Made by a program: the position numbers and the translations under genes. DNA of 64,000 nt from Patescibacteria group bacterium (GTDB lineage: Bacteria > Patescibacteriota > Patescibacteriia > UBA1558 > UBA10009). The stretch covers positions 91,244 to 155,243 of the forward strand of contig JBAZSE010000002.1 of assembly GCA_041662565.1 (NCBI GenBank). Direction: 5' to 3'. This document shows, one piece after another, positions 5,569-57,666 of the stretch. The stretch's first letter is position 1. Each line of letters starts with the position of its first letter. A model generated the notes under the pieces. That model searched no databases. It saw only the letters and a program-made list of their open reading frames with translations, and was not told the DNA's origin.

Positions 5569-6219
5569 TTACTTTTTAAAACCCCAATGGTTTGAACTGC
5601 GGGGTGTCAAAAAATAAGTACCAACCTCTGCCAACCAAAGAGATGCCAGCCAGAAAATTGATAATTCTAGAAATAGCCACCACAAGGCGGTTGTTCCAAG
5701 AACCATCAATAAATGAAGATATCTCTGTTGAGGCAATAAAAACTTGATTGGCCAAGTAATCATGCCTTGTCGGCGATCTTCTTCCACATCCCTCAAATCG
5801 CCAAGAAGATTTCTGACCATAATCAAAATCCCGGCCAACCAAGGCAAACCATCTCTTAAGCCGGTTAAAGCGGCTATCAAAACGACGGTTTGAAGGCCTC
5901 GAAAAATTGGCGACGCTAATCCCCAGAAATGCCTATTCTTTTTCGCATAAAGCATTGATGAAGCAATAAAAATCGCCCCTTCAATTATTGGAAAAAGTAA
6001 TAAACCCAAAGGAAATATAGCACAAGCCAAGCTCTTTGGTATATTGATCCTATAGTCATGAGCGTGGGCCGACTCTAGGTACGCCAAGAAACCGATCCAC
6101 AAACAGATGGCGCCAACCAATTTTACACCAGTAGCGCCCGCTGCCAGCAGTAACAGAATTAGGTCCGCTAAAGAATATATCCTGAGCACACCTACCAACT
6201 TGATGATTTTCATCATCAC
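5569..6219 (-). CDS. polytopic membrane protein, UbiA-prenyltransferase-like
   Basis: multi-TM; NLLGDLRDVEEDRRQG Asp-rich motif. Confidence 0.35.
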   Translation of the reverse strand: MMMKIIKLVGVLRIYSLADLILLLLAAGATGVKLVGAICLWIGFLAYLESAHAHDYRINIPKSLACAIFPLGLLLFPIIEGAIFIASSMLYAKKNRHFWGLASPIFRGLQTVVLIAALTGLRDGLPWLAGILIMVRNLLGDLRDVEEDRRQGMITWPIKFLLPQQRYLHLLMVLGTTALWWLFLELSIFWLASLWLAEVGTYFLTPRSSNHWGFKK

Positions 6220-7928: not shown

Positions 7929-9284
7929 ATGGTTCAAAAAAATCTCTTAAAACAAGTTAATCCGCTTTCAAAAAAAGTTTGGCTTTCCAACTGGCATAAA
8001 TTTTTTTCTGATCCGGAAAAACCGTCTGAACAAGAAAAGTTGAATATTTATTTGGACGAGGGTTTTAAAGAAAAATCTTTGACCAAGGTAGAAATAACAT
8101 ATCCGTCAAAAATCAAACAGTTAGCGGATAAAAAAAATCTAGTTCGATTTTTGGCAACCGAATTAAATAATATTGTTATTACCTTAGGTACGGCTCAATT
8201 AGGGCTAGAAGGCCCTTTAGCTCAAGAGGTGAAATTTTATGTAGAGAAAAAATTACCCCATCTGCAAGAACAGATAAAAGAAAACTTCGGCGGCCAACCT
8301 AAAATCCAGCTTAGTCCGTTAAAAAAATCATTAGCTTTATTTTCGGCCTCGGTTAATCCAAAAGTTAAAATCTTAGGGCCAAGATTAGGCATTGACGTTG
8401 GCGGTACTTCTATTAATCTGGTTTTAGTAGACCACGGACAAGTTATTCAAAGCATTAGTTTTCCCAGCTTTCAGAAAAAAGAAACTTTTCATCAGTTTAT
8501 TAATCGCCTGATTTTACAAATTGAAAAAACGGTTTGGCTTAAAAAATTTAAAGGCATTGGCATTGCTTGGATCGGTGATGCCAGAAACGGCAAACCTTTA
8601 AGAAATTCCGCTTTTTTAAAAAAATTGGACAATACCAATAATTTGATGGAAAAATTTCCCCAAGTTATTTCCAAAAAATTTGGCGTGCCAATAGGTGTTT
8701 GGGGAGATATTGAAGCACTCGGTTGTTATTTAGGTAAAATCGGCAGGGCCAAAAATAGCTGGTTAATCAGGTTAGGCACCAGCGTCGGGGGTGCCTATTT
8801 TGATGCTAAAGGTAATTTTGACATTGGCTTTCATTTGGTTAGCCGGGTAATAATTAATATGTCCAACAAAGCATTTAAACATAATGCGACAGGAGTTAGG
8901 GGCATGGCACAGCAATACGTGGGCAGTTTTGCCTTTACACAGCTTTTGCAAGATAAAAAAATTAAAATACCACCTGGTAAAGGCCCTGGCGAAATTCTTC
9001 AAAAATTATTGATTGGTACAACTACAGATAAAAAAATTGCCCGCGCCATTATTTCACTTTATTCTCAGAATTTACACGAATTGATTAAAGAATTGATCAA
9101 GCATTATAATTTTAAAACGATAATTTTAAGCGGCTCCCCGGTAACTGGACTTTTAGGCAAAACCATTATAAACTCTGTTAAACGAAATTTACTTAAAGAC
9201 AAATTAAAGTTAACCATAAAAAAAGACAGTTTACCGCAAAAATACTCCGGCGCTTTTGCCGTAGCAGAACTATTAAGATTATAA
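7929..9284 (+). CDS. ROK/sugar-kinase-like ATPase domain protein with long N-terminal extension
   Basis: LGIDVGGTSINLVLVD phosphate-1 motif of ASKHA/ROK kinases. Confidence 0.4.
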   Translation: MVQKNLLKQVNPLSKKVWLSNWHKFFSDPEKPSEQEKLNIYLDEGFKEKSLTKVEITYPSKIKQLADKKNLVRFLATELNNIVITLGTAQLGLEGPLAQEVKFYVEKKLPHLQEQIKENFGGQPKIQLSPLKKSLALFSASVNPKVKILGPRLGIDVGGTSINLVLVDHGQVIQSISFPSFQKKETFHQFINRLILQIEKTVWLKKFKGIGIAWIGDARNGKPLRNSAFLKKLDNTNNLMEKFPQVISKKFGVPIGVWGDIEALGCYLGKIGRAKNSWLIRLGTSVGGAYFDAKGNFDIGFHLVSRVIINMSNKAFKHNATGVRGMAQQYVGSFAFTQLLQDKKIKIPPGKGPGEILQKLLIGTTTDKKIARAIISLYSQNLHELIKELIKHYNFKTIILSGSPVTGLLGKTIINSVKRNLLKDKLKLTIKKDSLPQKYSGAFAVAELLRL

Positions 9285-15751: not shown

Positions 15752-16105
15752 ATGAACAAACTTGTCATCAAGCAACCGGAAATCTGTTTCTTTATTGGCA
15801 ATGCTCTCAAGCTCGTCATCGATGAGCAGAGGAATATCTGCCATGATGATGGCGCAAACAGGACTGTTTTGGGCCGTTTAGTGGGATTTGTTGATCCTCA
15901 AAACGACCAAAATAAATCCTCTTTCCCGGTCGCCGGCTGGCAGCTGATCTTTGCCAATGAAGACGGCAAGGAATGCACTTTCGACCCGAAGGTCACCACC
16001 ATTCTCAATCGTCGAGGCAATGGCGACCAACGAAGTCGAAGCGTCGAAATGGATCTTGATCGCAGAGAAAAGCCCGATAGGCGGCAACAATCCGCCCCGA
16101 TCTGA
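15752..16105 (+). CDS. hypothetical protein encoded on a locally GC-rich (~50%) segment
   Basis: 117 aa ORF; followed by terminator gacggaca...tgtccgtc T7 at 16119-16160. Confidence 0.35.
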   Translation: MNKLVIKQPEICFFIGNALKLVIDEQRNICHDDGANRTVLGRLVGFVDPQNDQNKSSFPVAGWQLIFANEDGKECTFDPKVTTILNRRGNGDQRSRSVEMDLDRREKPDRRQQSAPI

Positions 16106-44762: not shown

Positions 44763-45083
44763 ATGAAGGTAAAAGGGATCACAGAGGTCCAAGTTTTCGT
44801 ACGCAAAAACGAACCAGTTTCGGAAGGAGATTTTCCTCCTTCTCATTACCTGGTGGTAAGAAAACATTTCGCTTGTGGCGATTTAGTCATTGGCATTGAT
44901 AACAGATTGAATCTCGATGTTCTTCATGCCAGTACCAAACCGCACTTCCAGCTGAGTTCGTACCGACAAAAGGGCACGATTGGATTGCCGAACGACATTA
45001 TCCAAAGTGCCACAAAAATCGTCCAAGAACAGCGGGTACTGAACAGAAAGTTCAGAACAGTTAAGCTACTTTTACCTGCTTAG
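44763..45083 (+). CDS. cassette hypothetical protein, GC-rich coding sequence
   Basis: 106 aa; followed by 15-bp-stem terminator at 45089-45132. Confidence 0.4.
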   Translation: MKVKGITEVQVFVRKNEPVSEGDFPPSHYLVVRKHFACGDLVIGIDNRLNLDVLHASTKPHFQLSSYRQKGTIGLPNDIIQSATKIVQEQRVLNRKFRTVKLLLPA

Positions 45084-47847: not shown

Positions 47848-48508
47848 ACCTAACACAGCGTATCTGGTTTCGTGAAAAGAAAAAATAATAAATAATTTCA
47901 GATATTTAATTAGTTCTTTTAAAATTTTATTATAAAAAAGGCCGCCTCAACCTTCTTGGGTATATTGGCGGTAATGATGTCGGCTTGAGGTAGTATTCTA
48001 CAATTTCCGAAGATCCAGAGCGGGGTTCGGGAAAAAGCAGACCTTGCCACCAAATGCATCTACTGATATGTAGAGCACGTTTGTGCCCTTTGCCTTGCAG
48101 CCGGACCTTGCCGACAAAGGTGCCACGCCGACTACGGTAGCACTTCTGCGATAGGGATCTTCCACCCTATCGCCGGGCTCAAAACCGAATTGAGCGCAAG
48201 CCTCCTTAGAAGGATCAACCTTCAAAACCGTGCCATTAAAGGCAGTAACTTCCTGCAACATTAGCACTCCCTATACTTGTGAGATTGTGTCTTGTGTATT
48301 TTTACAATTCATGGAATAGTATCATTATTTTAAAATTATGTCAATGTTAGTATAAAATTTTAAAAGAACATTAATTAAGGTAAATTATTTATTATATTTC
48401 TCTTCACTTCACCCAAATTTTCTGTTTACTTCGGGGGTAGGCTCGCTACCGCTCGCAATTATACCCCCTCCGTTCACAGAAAACTTCAGATACGCACGCA
48501 CGTTAGGC
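47848..48508 (+). repeat. split attC site 12 (~660 bp): R'' ACCTAAC + CAGCGTATCTG ... embedded minus-strand ORF ... CAGATACGCACG + R' GTTAGGC
   Basis: cgtatctg at 5' arm is reverse complement of cagatacg in 3' arm; 3' arm starts ttcacccaaatttt. Confidence 0.5.
47998..48267 (-). CDS. hypothetical protein encoded on GC-rich insert inside attC 12
   Basis: 89 aa minus-strand ORF; GC content well above flanking DNA. Confidence 0.4.
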   Translation of the reverse strand: MLMLQEVTAFNGTVLKVDPSKEACAQFGFEPGDRVEDPYRRSATVVGVAPLSARSGCKAKGTNVLYISVDAFGGKVCFFPNPALDLRKL

Positions 48509-49760: not shown

Positions 49761-50168
49761 GAAATCAAATTTTTCTCTATGAGAAAAGGACTATCTACAG
49801 ACAGTCCTTTTAAAATAATGGAGTAGCTGGAAACCAGCAATAATAATTGACAATTGGGAGTCCGACTACGCTCGGACTACACGCCTAAGCAAAATAGCTT
49901 TTGGGTCAATCCCTGCTAGATTTGAAATCCCAATCATCGACCATTGAACATAAGTTCAAATATTGCTGTCTAGCATGTTTCCAGCTACCACTTTTTATGC
50001 TAAACGAACGAATATAAAAAGATATTAAACTATATATAATTTATTGTCAATAGTATTAAAATTATAATAAATAAGTTTATTAATATAGAAAAATTTGACA
50101 TCACCTAACACCGCGTATGCAGTTAAATCAAATTTGCCTTATTTTTCAACTTTTGATAGTATAGCAGT

Positions 50169-50393
50169 ATGAAAAACTTAAACTTTACAGTATACATAGA
50201 AAGAGATGAGGATGGCGTATTTATTGGTTCCATCCCTACTATTCCCTCCTGTTATGCTCAAGGTAAGACCCAAGAGGATATGCTTAAAAATCTTAGGGAA
50301 GTTTTGCGTCTTTGTTTAAGGAATAATAAAAGAGATACTTTAGAAAATACTAAATTTGTAGGCATACAAAACCTAGAAGTTGCTTATGCCTAG
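50169..50393 (+). CDS. hicB: HicB-family antitoxin (UPF0150)
   Basis: YIERDEDGVFIGSIPTIPSCYAQGKTQEDMLKNLREVL matches HicB N-domain pattern. Confidence 0.6.
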   Translation: MKNLNFTVYIERDEDGVFIGSIPTIPSCYAQGKTQEDMLKNLREVLRLCLRNNKRDTLENTKFVGIQNLEVAYA

Positions 50394-50603
50394 ATTAATT
50401 CCAATTAAACCCAAGAAATTGATTAAAATCCTCTTGGGTTTTGGTTTTATAGAACGTGATGCCGAAGGGTCTCACGTCTTTTTTAAACACCAGATGGCAG
50501 AACAACAGTAATACCCATGCACGACGAAATAAGCAAGGGATTGTTAAAAAAGATACTCAACGATATTCAACTCTCAATAGAGGAATACGATAGATTAAGG
50601 TAA
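50386..50603 (+). pseudogene. hicA: hicA toxin gene disrupted by frameshift (two reading frames: MPRLIP...KHQMAEQQ* then IPMHDEISKGLLKKILNDIQLSIEEYDRLR*)
   Basis: both halves match HicA (GSH..F.H and IP.H..I..GLL..IL); frames shift near 50505-50515. Confidence 0.5.
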
Positions 50604-50796
50604 TAAGGCAAATTTTCTTTAACGTACATTGGCGTGTGGTTCCCCGCCTGCCGGCGGGATATTTTACCACCCGCCAACGTCGCATACGCCCGCACGTTAG
50701 GTGAAATAGCCAGAAATTTCTTTTTTATTTTTTAGATTTTTTGACAATTTATCGTAAAATAACATGGCTTGTGATATAATTTAAGTCGTCTAATTA

Positions 50797-51252
50797 TTGA
50801 CTGTAAATATTATGAAAAAAATTTATAAAAATATTGGCATTGGGTTGTTGGTAGCAAATATTTTTTTACTCGTAACTGGTAACTTTTTGAAATTTTTAAC
50901 AGCTCTAATTGTTCTTCCAAATTTTTATTCCTACTTATCGCAAATGATCTCAGTTAATGGACAATATAATGTAATCTTACTTTATTTGTTGATGTCATTA
51001 GATGCCTTACTGACATTTTGGGGAATTGTATTATCAATTATCCTAATTAAAAATAATCGTTATAATAAGCAGTTATTATGGTGGATATACTCATGGGTAG
51101 GAATAAAAATTTTATCCTTTATTTTATTTCTGCCATTAAAAATTTACGAGACTACGGATTTGGTGATAGCTGTACTTTTTTTTGTATTCCTAATCTATCA
51201 AGATAATAAATGGTCAAGGATCATAAAGAATAAATTGCCAAAAAATATATAA
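50797..51252 (+). CDS. cassette polytopic membrane protein
   Basis: 151 aa, 4 TM. Confidence 0.45.
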   Translation: MTVNIMKKIYKNIGIGLLVANIFLLVTGNFLKFLTALIVLPNFYSYLSQMISVNGQYNVILLYLLMSLDALLTFWGIVLSIILIKNNRYNKQLLWWIYSWVGIKILSFILFLPLKIYETTDLVIAVLFFVFLIYQDNKWSRIIKNKLPKNI

Positions 51253-51275
51253 AGGAAAAAATTTCTGTCTACATC

Positions 51276-51494
51276 CCCTATCACCGCGTATGCGGCTTTA
51301 GCTTCCGCCTACTTACTATTACATTGATATTTCATACTAAAGATGCTTAAATACAATTAAGTATCTTTTAGTTTATGGATAACGTGCGGCGTAAGCTAAA
51401 GGCCTACATTGTCAGGGAGTTTCGGGGGTGGCGCTCCGCGCATATTATACCCCCTCAACTCCCTGACAACGTCGCATACGCACGCACGTTAGGT
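51276..51494 (+). repeat. attC site 15 (long type, degenerate R'' CCCTATC; R' GTTAGGT)
   Basis: hairpin gcttaaatacaattaagt variant with compensatory changes. Confidence 0.6.
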
Positions 51495-51584
51495 GCCATT
51501 GCCTTAAAAGTGACTACTATTGTAAGATGTAAAGGTGATGGAAACATCTAAACTAAAAACTAATGTGCGAATATAGGCAACAGC

Positions 51585-52197
51585 ACCTAACACAGGATTG
51601 CCGATTCGCAAATTTAAATAAAATTATTTACCAACTAACCTAAGAATATGTCACAAACTATCAACATTAGTCAGCCGGTCGGTAATGAAAATTATTACGC
51701 TTCCAAAAAAAGAAAAATCATTGACTTTCTAATAGGATTATTTAGTAATTTTTTATCAATACCTTTATTTACATTCTTAGTTCTTTTATTAGGCACTGCA
51801 AGTAATATAGACATTTTTGACCAACATTTACATGATTGGGTTGGGCTAGAGGAAAAATCCTTTATATTCATAACAACGATCCTTATTACATTAGCAACTT
51901 TATTAACTGAATATTTAATAATAAAAAAGTTGAATAAAAAAAGAAAGTACATAACTAAAGGAATGATCATCCCTTTAGTATTATTAATCCTTATTATGCT
52001 CTACGCTTTACTTTATACCAAAATTAAGGGATTTAATTACATGTAATTTCTAAGATGTATTCAATAATTTTATTTAAATTCGCTCATCCAAATTGCTCGT
52101 TCCCCCTCGTCGCTACGGTGCTAGGCCTCTGGCCAATTTTAGCACCTTCGCTCGCTCGGGGTCACTTCGCAACTTCGGCAATCCACGCACGTTCGGT
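51585..52197 (+). repeat. split attC site 16: R'' ACCTAAC + AGGATTGCCG ... ORF ... CGGCAATCC + R' GTTCGGT
   Basis: arms complementary across 399-nt ORF. Confidence 0.55.
51648..52046 (+). CDS. membrane protein encoded inside split attC
   Basis: 132 aa, 3 TM. Confidence 0.45.
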   Translation: MSQTINISQPVGNENYYASKKRKIIDFLIGLFSNFLSIPLFTFLVLLLGTASNIDIFDQHLHDWVGLEEKSFIFITTILITLATLLTEYLIIKKLNKKRKYITKGMIIPLVLLILIMLYALLYTKIKGFNYM

Positions 52198-52272
52198 GCC
52201 ATATTTGGTAAAAAGTAGCCTTGAAAAATTCAAAAAAATGTGTTAATATACCCATATAAATAACCTATTTTC

Positions 52273-52431
52273 TATGAAAAATATCTCTATAACTACTGAA
52301 AAATTACACAAAGCAGTTGCTCAATCTTCCAAAATGGAAGGATTAAGTTTTAATGACGCTAAAAGGAATAAAAAGCTTATTCAAACCTTAAAATCTTATG
52401 GCAGAGCATTCGCGATATTACGTCAGCGATA
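52273..52431 (+). CDS. FicA/VbhA-like antitoxin (52 aa) with inhibitory S-x-x-x-E-G motif
   Basis: SSKMEG matches (S/T)xxxE(G/N); overlaps Fic gene start by ~35 nt. Confidence 0.45.
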
Positions 52432-53009
52432 ATGATGCCGGGGTTAGCAAAGGAATACTTAAAAACAAGCTTGGGATTAAAAGCAGAAAAAAGTTAAGTG
52501 AAGCCGAAACCCTGCTACTTACTGACACCTACACACATTTTTTTGAACTATTAAGAAAAGGCAAAATAAAATTTGACCTTTCTTTATTATTTTCTATTCA
52601 TGAATATTTCTTAAATCATCTCTACGACTGGGCAGGCAAAGTAAGAACAGTCAATATTTCAAAAGATGAGATGCTTTTTGTTCCAGTTAAATATATTGAT
52701 AAAGTTTTAGTAGAATTCAATAAACTTCTTACAACAACATCGCCAAAACAATCTAACCCTAATAGTGAAATTTCTCAAAAACTAGCAATCATTCATAATG
52801 AATTTAATGTCATTCATCCTTTTAGAGAGGGCAATGGCAGAACAATACGTTTATTTCTTGATTTAATTGCTGTAAGTGTAGGCAATGATCCGATTGACTG
52901 GAGTAAAACGCCAAATAAAGATTATCTCAAAGCCTGCGTTCAAGGCGTAAATGGTAATCACGAACCAATGGCAAAAATAATAAAGAAAGGCCTTAATAAA
53001 TCTGCTTAA
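52398..53009 (+). CDS. Fic-domain protein (class I FicT-like toxin)
   Basis: HPFREGNGRTIRLF Fic motif HPFx(D/E)GNGR. Confidence 0.7.
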   Translation: MAEHSRYYVSDNDAGVSKGILKNKLGIKSRKKLSEAETLLLTDTYTHFFELLRKGKIKFDLSLLFSIHEYFLNHLYDWAGKVRTVNISKDEMLFVPVKYIDKVLVEFNKLLTTTSPKQSNPNSEISQKLAIIHNEFNVIHPFREGNGRTIRLFLDLIAVSVGNDPIDWSKTPNKDYLKACVQGVNGNHEPMAKIIKKGLNKSA

Positions 53010-53063
53010 TAAAATCAAATTTTTCAATTATTGAAAGATCATGGTAAGATTTTAAATAGATGG

Positions 53064-53077
53064 AACACCGCCTAAAA
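53064..53077 (+). repeat. truncated attC remnant (R'' gcctaaa only) marking distal end of array
   Basis: preceding 35 nt resemble the tail before attC 4 (..atggtaRgatt..atggaacaccgcctaa). Confidence 0.4.
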
Positions 53078-53126
53078 AAATTGCTTGCACAAAAATAAAA
53101 AATTAATTTGCTAACTTGCAAACAAT

Positions 53127-53492
53127 ATGGAACTTACTATTTTTTTAGCCAGATTTTGGGGAAGTTTATTTATGTTACTTGGCGCGATGAGTGTTGGCGC
53201 AAAGTTGCTAGGCAGAATCATAGAATATACCGAAGATAAAACCATTACCATAGCCACCGGCTACATTACTTTTTTGCTAGGCCTGGCTACCGTTGTGGCG
53301 CATAATATCTGGGTTGCTGACTGGCAAGTGGCCATTACTATTTTGGGCTGGATTACTTTATTTAAAGGAATTGAAAAAATCGGTTTTCCGGATCGCGTTA
53401 ATAAAAAAGCGCAGATGTTTAAGGGCAAACAAATACTTTGGGGCGGTGTTATCTTTTTAATCGGCGCTTTTTACTTTTGGATAAGTTTATAA
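53127..53492 (+). CDS. membrane protein (3-4 TM)
   Basis: 121 aa ORF. Confidence 0.4.
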   Translation: MELTIFLARFWGSLFMLLGAMSVGAKLLGRIIEYTEDKTITIATGYITFLLGLATVVAHNIWVADWQVAITILGWITLFKGIEKIGFPDRVNKKAQMFKGKQILWGGVIFLIGAFYFWISL

Positions 53493-53894
53493 AGATTTGA
53501 TATTAAAATAAACATACCAAACAACATTTTATATTAAAGCAAAATAACCAAAATAATATGGGCAGTTTAATAGAAATAAACGATACTTTGCAGATTAGCG
53601 CCAAGCAGGGATTTCCGGTGAAATTGAATTATCACAAACATCTAAAAACACCCTTGCAAACCAAGGATTTTTAAAATAAAATATTTCACTTTAAAAATAA
53701 AGCCGGAATTAGAATATTCCAGACGTTGCCAGTTAGAAATTTTTTAGTTCAAAATATTAATGGCAAGTGGCTTTACTGGGGTTTAATAAATATCATTGAG
53801 GTGATTTATGATTATGAGAAAAAAATTACTGCCGGTAAATTTAAAATTACTTATATTTATACGCCCGAAGAAATGAAACAGGCGCATAAATTAA

Positions 53895-54146
53895 TTGACC
53901 AAAGAAAAAAAACCGATTATTTTAATTAACAAAAAAAATATGTTTGTTCATCACAAAGAAAAAAATCCTTTTATTTACTATTTTATCACCGGAACCGGTT
54001 TGGTAATATTTTGGCGAGGTTTATGGGGATTATTGGATATTTATCTTTTCCCGGGAAATCCCCTTTTAAGTTACGTTGTTTCGGCGGGTATTGGCTTGGT
54101 AATTTTGTATATCAATGACTTTTCCTTATCGGAATTGAGCAAATAA
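53895..54146 (+). CDS. small membrane protein
   Basis: 83 aa, 2 TM. Confidence 0.35.
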   Translation: MTKEKKPIILINKKNMFVHHKEKNPFIYYFITGTGLVIFWRGLWGLLDIYLFPGNPLLSYVVSAGIGLVILYINDFSLSELSK

Positions 54147-54167
54147 TTTTATTGCCCAGCCGCTATC

Positions 54168-55202
54168 CTAAACCAATCTTAAGTTAGCTTCTGCATCCAA
54201 AATCTTCCAATTATTCTTGGAAGATTTTTGTTTATTAAAATATCCGGCTAAAGCAATCATCGCCGCGTTATCTCCTGTTAACCATTTTTCGGGCACAAAA
54301 CAGTTGAGTTTAGAATTATTAGCTTTGAGTTTTAAGTTTTGAGTTAATTCTTCATTCGCGCTAACTCCCCCGCCCAAGATAACTGACTTCACTTTATATT
54401 TTTCCGCCGCCCTGATTGTTTTAGCAACCAGCACTTCAATCACCGCTTGTTGAAATGAAGCACAAACATCATTGACGTGCGCTTGGCTTAAAGAACCGGT
54501 AGGTGCCATATCTCTAATATGGTATTTAACCGCTGTTTTTAAACCGGAAAAAGAAAAATCAAAATTAGCAGAGGTTAGCATTGGCCGAGGAAATTTAATA
54601 GCCGAGCTATTTCCCTTGGCGGCAAAATGAGCCACAATCGGTCCGCCAGGATAACCCAATTCCAACATTTTAGCCACTTTATCAAAGGCCTCACCCACGG
54701 CATCATCCAGTGTTTGCCCTATAAGCTTATATTTACCAATGCCTTTAACTAAGATGAGTTCGGTATGACCGCCAGAAACAATCAAACCGACCGCCGGTAG
54801 ATTTGTGATTTGTTTGTTTTTTGCTTCTTGTTGATTGCGATTTAATAAGTAGCTCCACAAATGCCCTTCCAAATGATTAACGCCGATCAAAGGAACATCC
54901 CAAGCATAGGATAAAGTTTTAGCGGTTTGCACGCCAACTGATAATGAAGTAATTAAACCAGGGCCCATGGTAACAGCAAGCAAATCCGGTTTGGAATTTT
55001 TTCCCATGGCCTCTTGAATAACCGGCATTATTGCTTCAACATGTTGTCTAGCTGCCACCTCCGGTACAACTCCACCGTATTTTTGATGAATTTGGGTTTG
55101 CGACCAAACAACGTTTTTAACAACCTTAAACTTATCGCCTTTTACTTCCAGTAAAGCGGCTGCTGTTTCATCACAAGATGATTCGATTCCTAGGATAATC
55201 AT
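54168..55202 (-). CDS. tsaD: tRNA N6-adenosine threonylcarbamoyltransferase TsaD
   Basis: MIILGIESSCDETAAAL N-terminus, HLEGH metal site. Confidence 0.85.
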   Translation of the reverse strand: MIILGIESSCDETAAALLEVKGDKFKVVKNVVWSQTQIHQKYGGVVPEVAARQHVEAIMPVIQEAMGKNSKPDLLAVTMGPGLITSLSVGVQTAKTLSYAWDVPLIGVNHLEGHLWSYLLNRNQQEAKNKQITNLPAVGLIVSGGHTELILVKGIGKYKLIGQTLDDAVGEAFDKVAKMLELGYPGGPIVAHFAAKGNSSAIKFPRPMLTSANFDFSFSGLKTAVKYHIRDMAPTGSLSQAHVNDVCASFQQAVIEVLVAKTIRAAEKYKVKSVILGGGVSANEELTQNLKLKANNSKLNCFVPEKWLTGDNAAMIALAGYFNKQKSSKNNWKILDAEANLRLV

Positions 55203-55261
55203 ATGAGAAAATACTAACACATTTTAGTAAAAACAAAAACCGCTTAAACAGCGGAATTTTC

Positions 55262-55336
55262 TGGTACCACCACGGGGAATCGAACCCCGATTACCAGGAT
55301 GAAAACCTGGCGTCCTAACCGTTAGACGATGGTGGC
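55262..55336 (-). tRNA. tRNA-Glu (anticodon TTC), CCA encoded
   Basis: cloverleaf: acceptor GCCACCA/TGGTGGT, anticodon stem CCAGG/CCTGG loop TTTTCAT, T-arm GGGGTTCGATTCCCC. Confidence 0.8.
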
Positions 55337-55438
55337 TTACTTAAACTATGCCTTATTATACTTAAAACTCGGTAAATGTCAAGATTTGCCTAAATTTAGC
55401 CATAAAAAGGCGTAGTGAAACGTAGCGCATACCACACC

Positions 55439-55466
55439 TTGACAAATCCTGAAAAATAGGTATAAT
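55439..55466 (+). promoter_or_regulatory. promoter TTGACA-16-TATAAT for GC-rich island genes
   Basis: consensus hexamers; AAGGAGG Shine-Dalgarno 7 nt before TTG start. Confidence 0.5.
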
Positions 55467-55521
55467 AAACTATTCATGCTCGTTACAATTCACCCCCAAC
55501 CCCTCTGAAAGGAGGTTCTTC

Positions 55522-55848
55522 TTGGCTGAAGCCAAACCCAAAAGAAACCTTGCCTTTGATTCGTATTTGACCACAATTAACCACACCCTAACAGATGAGA
55601 TTGATACTGTGTTTAGGGGAAAAGGTTACTTTTTGGTAAAGTATGATTTCCAAGGCGAAGTTATCTTTATCACCTGCTCATTATCTTCTCTGTCTTCACC
55701 GACAAAAGAAGATGATAAGCCGCAAATCAGCTTACCAGAGCTACAACAACAATGCGTACCTGGTTGCAAGGTCCTACTCATCGAAGTGGGATTTGTAGAA
55801 AGACGCAAGGGCGGCGGATATCGAGCCACCTCGGCTCAACCGCTGTAG
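55522..55848 (+). CDS. hypothetical protein (TTG start), GC-rich island
   Basis: 108 aa; ~50% GC. Confidence 0.4.
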   Translation: MAEAKPKRNLAFDSYLTTINHTLTDEIDTVFRGKGYFLVKYDFQGEVIFITCSLSSLSSPTKEDDKPQISLPELQQQCVPGCKVLLIEVGFVERRKGGGYRATSAQPL

Positions 55849-55882
55849 AAAGCAAGAAAGAAAAGAAAGCAAGGAGAACTCC

Positions 55883-56950
55883 ATGAGTTCAACGACTCCT
55901 CGGGCATTCCTGGACTTCTTGGAAAGCCATCGGCAACTGCTATCACAACGTGATGAGCAGTGGCAACGCACTTTGCGGGCAATTGTCCGCCGTTCAACCT
56001 CGGAAGAAGGCCTTCGACTCCAACTCGTCGAGTTGGTTGACGCAGGTAAACAACCTAAGATTCATCTATCAATCCGGGCAAAGGCCTTGTGTCTGCTTAT
56101 GACACCTTCGCTGGCCTGGTTTGATGGCAGTTTGGTTCGTTCTGAGCTAATCAATGCTCATCGGCCTCTCACGCCCTGGCTGGCCGACATCGCCAACATC
56201 AACTGGACATTCATTCCGTACGAACTCATGTCACTCGCCAAGGAACTGATTCTAATTTCTTGGAAGCTGATTCCCGACCGTGATGACACAGTTTCACGGG
56301 AAAAATATTCCAGACACTTATTGGAATACGCATCGGTTACCTTAGATGAGGAACTGGTACAAATGTACCCGCTCGATTGCCTACCGGTTTCATATGCTGC
56401 GGTCATCAAGAACCGTCAAATCCCAACCATCAAGAGATTGACGATTGACGCTTCGATTCGCATACGGATTGAAAAAGGCACTCCAGATGAGATCAAGAGC
56501 TACTTCTGGGTCATCATGGAAACCTGCAAGCTTCTGCTAAGCTCATACCCAAGTGATCTGCTTGTACAACAACTGCTCTTCATCGCCCCGCGCCACAAGG
56601 ATCTACTGGCGCCGCTCTTGAACATAAAGATGATGGGCATGCTGATGCACATCGCGACAGCAACTCCGGAGATGGATGATGCTTTGGTTCACCTGATCAC
56701 CAATTTCGTCAGCAGCCATACGGAAGGCAGCGGGAACTGCCTAACCTACACCGGACCTGCGGATATGGAAACGTTGATCCTAATGAAAAGAAGAATGGCC
56801 AGAGCCGAGTATGCACGCGTTGCCCGGACCATCGGCGACACCATCAACAAACTGGAGACAAAAATCGCAAGCTGCACCTGCTCAACAGGCGCATGTCCTT
56901 GCCAGGGGGTGGAGCATCCGGCAGTTCTAGCAATGCCGAAAATGCAATAA
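55883..56950 (+). CDS. hypothetical protein with C-terminal Cys cluster (CTCSTGACPCQG), GC-rich island
   Basis: 355 aa; ~52% GC versus ~38% background. Confidence 0.45.
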   Translation: MSSTTPRAFLDFLESHRQLLSQRDEQWQRTLRAIVRRSTSEEGLRLQLVELVDAGKQPKIHLSIRAKALCLLMTPSLAWFDGSLVRSELINAHRPLTPWLADIANINWTFIPYELMSLAKELILISWKLIPDRDDTVSREKYSRHLLEYASVTLDEELVQMYPLDCLPVSYAAVIKNRQIPTIKRLTIDASIRIRIEKGTPDEIKSYFWVIMETCKLLLSSYPSDLLVQQLLFIAPRHKDLLAPLLNIKMMGMLMHIATATPEMDDALVHLITNFVSSHTEGSGNCLTYTGPADMETLILMKRRMARAEYARVARTIGDTINKLETKIASCTCSTGACPCQGVEHPAVLAMPKMQ

Positions 56951-57005
56951 CCTTTACCCGCCTCGGGCGACTCAATCACATTTGCGAATCAAAAGCATTT
57001 GTGAA

Positions 57006-57031
57006 AGAGTCGCTCGAGCGGTCTTTTTTTT
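57006..57031 (+). terminator. intrinsic terminator ending GC-rich island
   Basis: gagtcgctcgagcggtc + T8. Confidence 0.5.
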
Positions 57032-57037
57032 ACAAAT

Positions 57038-57066
57038 TTGCCATGTGTATAAAAACATTGTATAAT
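57038..57066 (+). promoter_or_regulatory. promoter TTGCCA-17-TATAAT for hsp20
   Basis: consensus -10. Confidence 0.5.
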
Positions 57067-57084
57067 AAACGACGTAAAGCGAGT

Positions 57085-57112
57085 GAAGTGAAAAAGTTAA
57101 CTTTTTCACTTC
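57085..57112 (+). promoter_or_regulatory. perfect 12-bp inverted repeat gaagtgaaaaag-ttaa-ctttttcacttc in hsp20 5' leader (operator or RNA hairpin)
   Basis: located +15 to +45 relative to predicted start. Confidence 0.4.
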
Positions 57113-57183: not shown

Positions 57184-57666
57184 ATGTTACTTTTCGGCAA
57201 AAAAAATAAAACCAACACCGAAGCGGTGGCTGATGACTTTTTTTTAAACAACGAATCCGCTGAAACAAAAACCATTGCCACCAAAAAACCCTCACCCACC
57301 GAAGAAAAATGGTTGGATGAAGATTACGAAGAAGGCCAGCTTTCGGTTGATGTTTACCAAACAACAAACGCCATTGTGATTAAATCCACCATTGCCGGCG
57401 TTAAACCCGAAGACATTGATATTTCCATCAATAACGATATGGTAACCATTAGGGGCAAACGGGAAATTGAAGAAACCATAGCCGAAGACGATTATTTTTA
57501 CGCCGAATGCTACTGGGGCGGTTTTAGCCGTTCTATTATCTTGCCGGTAGAAATTATGGCCGATAAAGTGGAGGCCTCTTTAAAAAACGGCGTGCTGACT
57601 GTTACTTTGCCTAAAGCCAAAAAATCCCAGGCCTTTAGCATTAAAGTTAAGGAAGAAAATGATTAA
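57184..57666 (+). CDS. Hsp20/alpha-crystallin small heat-shock protein
   Basis: alpha-crystallin domain ...VTIRGKREIEE...GVLTVTLPKAK. Confidence 0.7.
   Translation: MLLFGKKNKTNTEAVADDFFLNNESAETKTIATKKPSPTEEKWLDEDYEEGQLSVDVYQTTNAIVIKSTIAGVKPEDIDISINNDMVTIRGKREIEETIAEDDYFYAECYWGGFSRSIILPVEIMADKVEASLKNGVLTVTLPKAKKSQAFSIKVKEEND

Follow-up and report, generated by a model that had tools for sequence, protein, structure and literature searches.

A compositionally foreign two-gene cassette between tRNA-Glu and hsp20 in a small group of Patescibacteria

Background

The concept of variable accessory or defence "hotspots" between core genes comes from E. coli, Pseudomonas and Vibrio. We compare with them a slot in a 64,000-nucleotide (nt) stretch of contig JBAZSE010000002.1 from a Patescibacteria group bacterium. 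This whole stretch is called the window, and coordinates given without another label are positions in it. The slot lies between tRNA-Glu and hsp20 and holds two genes, for proteins of 108 and 355 amino acids (aa). NCBI lists both proteins under the label 'Patescibacteria group bacterium' on an 809-kb contig, with locus tags WCV73_04905 and WCV73_04910. We argue that the two genes are probably a self-contained accessory expression cassette of horizontal origin. The ancestor of a small Komeilibacteria-like subclade (the closest HSP20 relatives are Candidatus Komeilibacteria by name) would have acquired it in the gap between two divergent promoters, those of tRNA-Glu and hsp20. Since then it would have been kept as an expressed unit with conserved regulatory ends. 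Divergence or replacement would have changed its coding interior far more quickly than the core genes on either side, and in a pattern discordant with the species relationships.

Patescibacteria genomes are tiny (about 0.8 Mb), and each accessory operon that is retained should earn its place. This cassette has a strong promoter and a clean terminator and stays in one slot through speciation, yet its composition remains foreign and sister genomes have versions of it that have diverged past recognition. If this pattern comes from diversifying selection on a function in conflict or host interaction, it would offer a handle on how uncultured symbionts meet phages or partners. The handle would be two small proteins with conserved recombination or expression ends, plus a protein family without known relatives. 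Otherwise it is one more orphan islet, and a reminder that proximity to a tRNA and high GC (guanine plus cytosine) content do not by themselves indicate an integrase-type island. The locus is familiar in kind, a small accessory islet gained by lateral transfer and set in a slot that varies. What appears to be new, as far as searches reach, is a protein family without detectable relatives. What is unusual is the combination of a conserved promoter and terminator, a hyper-divergent interior and a persistent non-host signature, documented in four genomes only.

Results

Occupied and empty slots

The slot is occupied in the window and in three relatives: L085 (= L001/L002), L004 and L086. It is empty in six others (L087, L091, L093, L094, L005 and L006), where tRNA-Glu adjoins hsp20. 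Because these six lack it, we read the unit as an insertion common to the carriers, and a single insertion in the ancestor of their subclade would be the most economical scenario. The identities of three flanking proteins group the carriers as ((L085, L086), window), with all empty-slot genomes outside. The original prediction had called the unit a foreign stretch inserted here and proposed to compare the tsaD-tRNA-Glu-hsp20 synteny of related genomes. The six empty slots and the atypical composition described below both bear this out.

Each carrier has its own arrangement. L085 has the order tsaD, tRNA-Glu, genes for 83, 168 and 351 aa, hsp20, VanW. The homologue P0002 sits in this same slot on a 92-kb contig (L001/L002/L085). 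P0003 is encoded on L004 (1.4 kb). Ahead of its gene lies the tail of a 168-aa-like gene, and behind it come the same terminator, the hsp20 promoter and the start of hsp20. The fourth carrier, L086 (GCA_030688315.1), was found via HSP20. It reads tsaD, tRNA-Glu, a 356-aa gene, a pair of 104 and 341/357 aa, then hsp20. Gene content thus varies, with an additional 168-aa gene in L085 and L004 and an additional 356-aa gene in L086. The 168-aa gene has left no remnant in the window, and the idea that the L085 copy is a paralogue of the large protein was rejected. The region also varies on the tsaD side of the tRNA. L005 is the closest GTDB representative and has an aminotransferase gene in the tRNA-tsaD gap, the more distant L006 has an extra open reading frame (ORF) there, and in L092 a cold-shock gene separates tsaD from the tRNA. 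L097 (1.1 kb), the nearest relative by HSP20, was left out of this comparison, its upstream DNA being too short.

The features of the slot and its borders in the window are these.

54168-55220, minus strand: tsaD, the left flanking core gene (Pfam TsaD, E=5e-89)
55262-55336, minus strand: tRNA-Glu(UUC), left neighbour of the slot (ARAGORN; Rfam tRNA, 63.7 bits)
55355-55382, minus strand: tRNA-Glu promoter TTGACA-16-TATAAT, divergent from the cassette promoter and on the host side of the junction (12/12 consensus; conserved relative to L085)
55439-55470, plus strand: cassette core promoter TTGACAAATCCTGAAAAATAGGTATAATAAAC, -35 at 55439-55444 and -10 at 55461-55466 (TTGACA-16-TATAAT, 12/12 sigma-70 consensus)
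55471-55521, plus strand: 5' leader of ~50 nt with the Shine-Dalgarno (SD) sequence GGAGG at 55511-55515, 7 nt ahead of the TTG start (read from the sequence)
55522-55848, plus strand: gene 1, ORF of 108 aa with a TTG start
55849-55882, plus strand: purine-rich intercistronic spacer of 34 nt, SD AAGGAG at 55871-55876 (read from the sequence)
55883-56950, plus strand: gene 2, ORF of 355 aa with AAGGAG upstream
56873-56902, plus strand: Cys cluster C-T-C-S-T-G-A-C-P-C, residues 331-340 of the 355-aa protein (read from the sequence)
56958-57031, plus strand: intrinsic terminator at the right end of the cassette, a two-tier 64-nt hairpin (56958-57021) and then a T-run
57038-57066, plus strand: hsp20 promoter, on the host side of the right junction (11/12 consensus match)
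57184-57666, plus strand: hsp20, right neighbour of the slot (Pfam HSP20, E=1e-20)

Regulatory ends

The unit runs promoter, leader, 108-aa gene, 34-nt spacer, 355-aa gene, 64-nt hairpin terminator. One promoter and one terminator enclose two adjacent genes with the small gene first, and this order is kept in L085 and L086. The original prediction had these parts right: the promoter at 55439 (a 12/12 sigma-70 consensus across 55439-55466), the two ORFs at 55522-55848 and 55883-56950 (the first with its TTG start and GGAGG 7 nt upstream), the CxCxxxxCxC cluster near the C-terminus of the larger protein (residues 331-340) and the terminator, whose hairpin and T-run end at 57031.

The core promoter is 94-97% identical across 33-34 nt in L085 and L086, and, with up to 3 mismatches allowed, it has no second copy in the window. 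L085 keeps the promoter, leader, SD and TTG start of the window, and the conservation ends at the start codon. The leader shows no significant secondary structure (z-score about 0). An SD-sequestering hairpin or RNA thermometer is unsupported, since z is about 0 and the changes in L085 are not compensatory. A spacer like that at 55849-55882 also precedes the extra 168-aa gene in L085. At the right end the terminator hairpin is unusually long and has a folding free energy (dG) of -39.3 kcal/mol (z=-8.0). Its architecture is common to L085, L004 and L086 (dG -36 to -43, z -6 to -7) with compensatory stem changes, and inspection by eye found no hairpin of comparable length in the empty slot of L087. 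Beyond it the hsp20 promoter, A-rich spacer included, is kept in all relatives examined, both carriers and empty-slot genomes. Since all carriers keep the promoter, the start codon and the terminator, we take the cassette to be a maintained and probably expressed accessory unit.

One can imagine the right-end hairpin as the attC-like site of an integron cassette. This was rejected. By eye there is no integrase and no GTTRRRY core site is visible, and the hairpin is followed by a U-run, so it reads as a terminator. Rfam has no match in the region except the tRNA. There is no sign of a diversity-generating retroelement either: no part of the unit is repeated elsewhere in the window as a template/variable pair, and the unit encodes no reverse transcriptase. 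A perfect 28-nt palindrome, GAAGTGAAAAAGTT/AACTTTTTCACTTC, occupies 57085-57112, downstream of the hsp20 promoter (-10 at 57061) and ahead of the hsp20 start (57184). It could be an operator or a hairpin in the 5' untranslated region, and it is absent from the aligned region of L085 and L004.

Composition

The composition anomaly is genuine, larger than GC alone shows, and the strongest in the window. The interval 55439-57035 has a GC content of 48.2% against 38.3% for the window, and it is the highest of all 1600-bp windows in the stretch. The original prediction had put the contrast at ~50-52% against ~38%. The enrichment stands and the figure does not, because only the 355-aa gene reaches 51% (50.8%, with 57.5% at third codon positions, GC3); the 108-aa gene has 44.4%. 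GC at first and second codon positions is raised in the cassette as well. The proposal of the original prediction to look at windowed GC, codon usage and tetranucleotides is answered by an interval that tops every scan. It ranks 1/313 in the window for tetranucleotide distance (z=5.6), and 1/313 for the Karlin dinucleotide signature, which is corrected for base composition (delta* z=5.2). The relative synonymous codon usage (RSCU) of the 355-aa gene correlates with that of the pooled host genes at r=0.08, whereas 33/33 host genes have r=0.40-0.87.

The relatives show the same thing. Cassettes from all 4 carriers have one common dinucleotide signature (delta* 39-73 among themselves), and this includes the L086 cassette, which cannot be aligned. 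Against every host background their delta* is 160-236, compared with only 17-60 for host versus host. Relatives with the same genes do not have them at normal GC, the outcome that would have refuted the original prediction: in every carrier the cassette is richer than its host (0.52-0.55 vs 0.45).

Three further ORFs had been listed in the original prediction as GC-rich and of similar character: 15752-16105, 44763-45083 and 47998-48267 (the last on the minus strand). Only the first is an outlier, and none of the three has sequence similarity to the cassette. The ORF at 15752-16105 (plus strand) encodes 117 aa with GC 0.496 and GC3 0.556, which makes it the sole other GC/GC3 outlier among 58 ORFs. 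Its product has no Pfam match and is not similar to the cassette proteins.

Divergence of the interior

The flanking genes and the cassette interior tell different stories. Between the window and L085 the flanking proteins are 79% (TsaD), 80% (HSP20) and 66% (VanW) identical, against 50% for the large cassette protein and about 31% for the small one. The sister genomes L085 and L086 are closer still in their flanks (85%, 92% and 77% for the same three proteins). Yet in their slot blastn aligns only the inverted tRNA and a 33-34-nt core promoter, TTGACAAATYCTRAAAAATAGGTATAATAAAC, at 94-97%. In L086 nothing but this core promoter can be aligned from the tRNA up to the hsp20 promoter; the L085 and L086 terminators share their architecture and are partly similar in sequence. 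The large proteins of these two genomes show a faint collinear similarity (31% across 54 aa, BLASTP E=0.1). Against the profile of the 355-aa family the L086 large protein gives hhalign E=0.02 with a probability of 2%, again collinear.

The protein tree of the cassette disagrees with the tree of the flanking genes. Synonymous divergence between the window and L085 is 0.56 in the cassette and 0.29-0.46 in the flanks. The cassette value is no lower than the flanking ones, so these two lineages have not exchanged the cassette recently. Judged from the sequences, the interior has either hyper-diverged or given way to a very old allele, at odds with how the species are related.

The extra gene of L086 (3986-5056 in L086, plus strand) stands directly after the tRNA-Glu 3' end with its own promoter. 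It is GC-rich (about 50%), and its 356-aa product is basic (pI 9.6) with no Pfam match; a JetB/DUF2398-like match is non-significant (PADLOC E=0.004, 14.5 bits).

The two proteins

The only homologues of the 355-aa protein in a word-indexed search of 5.8 billion clustered proteins are P0002 (51%) and P0003 (50%). No further true relative turned up among 1.84 billion representatives in a full HMMER profile search; one candidate from it, P0005, was dismissed as a spurious repeat protein. Neither window protein matches anything in Pfam, PHROGs, PADLOC or NCBIfam, and the same databases have no match for the cassette proteins of L085 and L086. A PDB sequence search returned nothing for the 355-aa protein. 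The original prediction had suggested remote homology or structure prediction for it. This gave an all-alpha AlphaFold2 model with 20 helices (predicted local distance difference test, pLDDT, 72; predicted template modelling score, pTM, 0.62) and no significant match to a known fold. The best Foldseek neighbours are importin-alpha/ARM chains at E=0.03 with template modelling (TM) scores of 0.26-0.30, which is not significant, and nothing in PDB or BFVD falls below that E-value. The predicted fold can be called no more than 'helical solenoid-like'.

Conservation in the family is uneven. The N-terminal ~175 residues have 48-68% invariant columns and residues ~176-300 have 16-28%. The Cys cluster is found in the window protein and P0003 and is missing from P0002, so it is optional and not essential to the family. 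An HEPN-like R-x5-H at residues 139-145 was discarded for a similar reason, as it is not kept in P0002.

The 108-aa protein is harder to place. It retrieved only itself in the word-indexed search of 5.8 billion proteins. Its positional orthologues have 83 aa (L085) and 104 aa (L086). It is 23% identical to the L086 protein across 97 aa (E=0.001), and it has a C-terminal G-x-GYR...QP motif in common with the L085 protein. It is predicted to be beta-rich, and its single-sequence AlphaFold2 model is unusable (pLDDT 41). No DNA-binding domain is recognisable in it. The small proteins gave inconsistent, non-significant matches to PDB sequences (LSm3 E=0.3, OMPLA E=0.06-0.4, SH3 E=0.8), and an Sm-like fold was not assigned on that account. 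Neither window protein has a signal peptide or hydrophobic segment evident by eye.

Discussion

Alternative explanations

The least unlikely rival is a decayed remnant of an integrase-mediated element (a prophage, an integrative and conjugative element or a genomic island) at tRNA-Glu, with its recombinase and attachment (att) sites later lost. The original prediction leaned this way: it put the unit beside the 3' end of the tRNA, named the tRNA a classic integration target and suggested an old remnant. The foreign composition, the tRNA adjacency and the presence/absence polymorphism among relatives all fit. So does L086, where the occupied slot is on the tRNA 3' side, and so does L085, where the same tRNA was hit by a GIY-YIG insertion with a 35-nt tRNA repeat. 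We still find this scenario unlikely. ARAGORN confirms the tRNA at 55262-55336, but it is on the minus strand, so it is the 5' end (55336) and the tRNA promoter that face the unit. The geometry is the same in L085, and the orientation flips among relatives. It had been noted at the outset that no recombinase or direct repeat is visible, and this holds. A search for a direct repeat of the tRNA 3' end was also proposed then, and no part of the tRNA is repeated in or around the unit: the best local alignment scores 8.5 against 9.4 +/- 1.1 for shuffled tRNA, and the repeat scan has no such family. Neither window ORF is a recombinase by Pfam, PHROG or NCBIfam, there is none in the L085 or L086 units, and an integrase is lacking in 4/4 carriers. 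The cassette proteins and promoter match no viral contig, phage record or plasmid, and no PHROG. Nor is this what decay looks like, with both genes constrained and the promoter and terminator conserved. Since the ORFs are intact and show a protein-coding substitution pattern (large-gene differences between the window and L085 or L004 rank codon positions 3 > 1 > 2, at 0.56/0.41/0.27), the unit is not a decaying remnant. On the evidence of the sequence, the cassette is apparently not a classic tRNA-integrated mobile element.

Among close relatives the single tRNA-Glu gene between tsaD and hsp20 has changed orientation repeatedly. It reads in the same direction as tsaD (minus) in the window, L085, L091, L092 and L094, and on the plus strand in L086, L087, L093, L005 and L089. 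At 95% identity, the window and L086 copies face opposite ways. In L085 the stretch 8564-8978 (8576-8990 in L001/L002) contains an 84-aa GIY-YIG gene (8643-8897, minus strand, GC 24%) next to tRNA-Glu (8564-8638). This gene lies between the functional tRNA and an exact 35-nt copy of the tRNA 5' half (8944-8978), itself adjacent to the former tRNA promoter. The gene and the copy have the look of a separate mini mobile element whose insertion point was the anticodon loop and which supplied a new 5' half in place of the old one. Directly behind its tRNA-Glu, L007 too has a GIY-YIG-like ORF (5751-6074). The slot is recombinationally active.

Another scenario is that these are vertically inherited, lineage-specific genes whose GC-richness comes from amino-acid composition or expression-linked codon bias and not from a foreign source. 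They occupy the same position in 4/4 carriers, which form a clade, and the synonymous divergence given above excludes recent transfer between the window and L085. The raised GC at first and second codon positions agrees with it as well, and so does the moderate correlation (0.49-0.65) of cassette RSCU with host RSCU in L085 and L086. However, the slot is empty in six related genomes, and the cassette protein tree is discordant with that of the flanking genes. Codon usage independent of amino acids is the extreme outlier of the window at r=0.08. C and G at third codon positions are both raised, which is unlike translational selection in AT-rich genomes. We regard this scenario as quite improbable.

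One could also tie the cassette to its neighbour, as a stress or proteostasis accessory of hsp20. The large protein would be a helical scaffold that works with its small partner as a co-chaperone or adaptor, perhaps with the four cysteines sensing redox state or metal. The cassette is always directly upstream of hsp20. The 64 kb contain exactly two copies of GTATAATAAAC, against 0.11 expected: one at the -10 region of the cassette promoter (55460-55470), the other at that of the hsp20 promoter (57060-57070). The alpha-solenoid-like predicted fold and the Cys cluster would suit such a role. But a very strong terminator separates the cassette from hsp20, most relatives have the same hsp20 without the cassette, and P0002 lacks the cysteines. 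Co-chaperones are also not expected to diverge beyond recognition between sister genomes. This makes a proteostasis role very doubtful.

We think it highly unlikely that the cassette encodes a host-interaction effector of an episymbiont, a laterally acquired ARM/HEAT-like binder in an arms race with the host cell, together with a small chaperone-like partner. The best fold matches, although non-significant, are importin-alpha/ARM repeats, and the foreign composition and rapid diversification also speak for it. Two members have the Cys-rich C-terminal tail, and the L086 protein at the same position has a KKKVCAVV terminus. Against this, the TM-scores are only 0.26-0.30, no repeat family is detected, and reading the sequences directly reveals no signal peptide or recognisable secretion signal. 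The L086 terminus is worth describing separately: the large-position protein (5721/5769-6794 in L086, plus strand) ends in a polybasic stretch and then a CaaX-like C-terminus, reminiscent of eukaryotic prenylation signals.

Finally, a GC-rich patch in an AT-rich genome often turns out to be a structured RNA, but a non-coding RNA with chance ORFs is effectively refuted by a 355-codon ORF kept open in 3 genomes at 50% amino-acid identity, by substitutions ordered 3 > 1 > 2 and by Rfam, which matches only the tRNA.

What the cassette may do

We return to the reading we favour, an inserted accessory cassette that is kept and expressed. The two proteins would act together in the cytoplasm, with the conserved N-terminal half of the large protein as the working core or scaffold and its variable C-terminal half as the specificity region. 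As to function, our best, still tentative guess is a fast-diversifying intracellular conflict module, either phage defence or a toxin/antidote-like pair, and we hold it with low confidence. It is based on the patchy slot, the fast and discordant divergence, the atypical composition and a neighbourhood with Fic, HicAB and YafQ-like genes. It comes from context and evolutionary behaviour because no catalytic or known defence domain was found.

The neighbourhood is what one would look for in a defence locus, a variable place amid conflict genes: the slot is occupied or empty among relatives, and Fic, HicAB and YafQ-like genes are nearby. In the window a Fic/DOC gene (52398-53009) lies 1.2 kb beyond tsaD, and in L087 and L091-L093 tsaD has HicAB, YafQ/HigB-like and Fic genes as neighbours. 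The far side of tsaD in the window (50000-54150) is very AT-rich (26-33% GC), with the Fic/DOC gene and small membrane ORFs. In relatives the corresponding region contains HicAB, YafQ/HigB-like, DUF7670 and Fic genes. Variability is thus found on both sides of tsaD. PADLOC has no defence match for the window, L085 or L086 proteins, except the non-significant JetB-like match of the extra L086 gene.

Several points weigh against the picture drawn here. None of the cassette proteins matches a known defence, toxin, antitoxin, nuclease, ATPase or other catalytic family. The amino-acid composition of a Leu-rich all-alpha protein could underlie part of the dinucleotide signature; the RSCU outlier is independent of amino acids, which argues that composition is not the whole cause. 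The L086 homology is weak (hhalign probability 2%), and from these sequences hyper-divergence cannot be separated from replacement by unrelated cargo. If the cassette has passed down vertically since the ancestor of the clade, with synonymous sites near saturation, the persistence of its foreign signature is unaccounted for. Either the cassette is replaced again and again from an external pool, or its nucleotide composition is under selection. The sample is four carriers, one of them a 1.4-kb contig, with a species tree from 3 flanking genes.

There is also a bolder scenario, which is speculative and on balance improbable. The cassette might be a new two-protein conflict system, for defence or addiction, that is private to the Komeilibacteria subclade. 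It would persist as a set of very old, much diverged alleles, with recombination in the conserved 33-nt promoter and the long hairpin terminator exchanging one for another. The non-host signature would then mark an external reservoir, some mobile element or virus not yet known, that repeatedly supplies alleles.

Comparison with known systems

ARM/HEAT alpha-solenoids such as importin-alpha are the nearest structures to the predicted large protein, with its about 20 stacked helices. The matches are non-significant, however (E>=0.03, TM 0.26-0.30), and there is no Pfam repeat and no PDB sequence match. The cassette resembles integrase-mediated, tRNA-linked genomic islands in its foreign composition, its place next to a tRNA and its presence or absence among relatives. 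It differs in that it has no integrase or att duplication and is on the tRNA 5'/promoter side in this genome. At only 1.6 kb it is also a single operon with its own promoter and terminator.

Type II toxin-antitoxin systems are similar in layout. The cassette is bicistronic with the small gene first and a strong promoter, its products would be cytoplasmic, and it is patchy and fast-evolving. But the 355-aa all-alpha protein fits no toxin fold, a DNA-binding domain is not recognisable in the small one, and Pfam, NCBIfam and PADLOC find no toxin or antitoxin domain in the cassette proteins.

The accessory or defence hotspots also resemble this locus. There is a fixed slot between tsaD/tRNA-Glu and hsp20 that is empty or holds different cargo in close relatives, the cargo has an atypical composition, and genes of toxin-antitoxin type (Fic, HicAB, YafQ-like) are nearby. 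The cargo differs from theirs in matching no known defence family. The other difference is that all occupied slots have the same promoter and terminator, which points to one cassette family with very divergent alleles and not to a series of unrelated systems.

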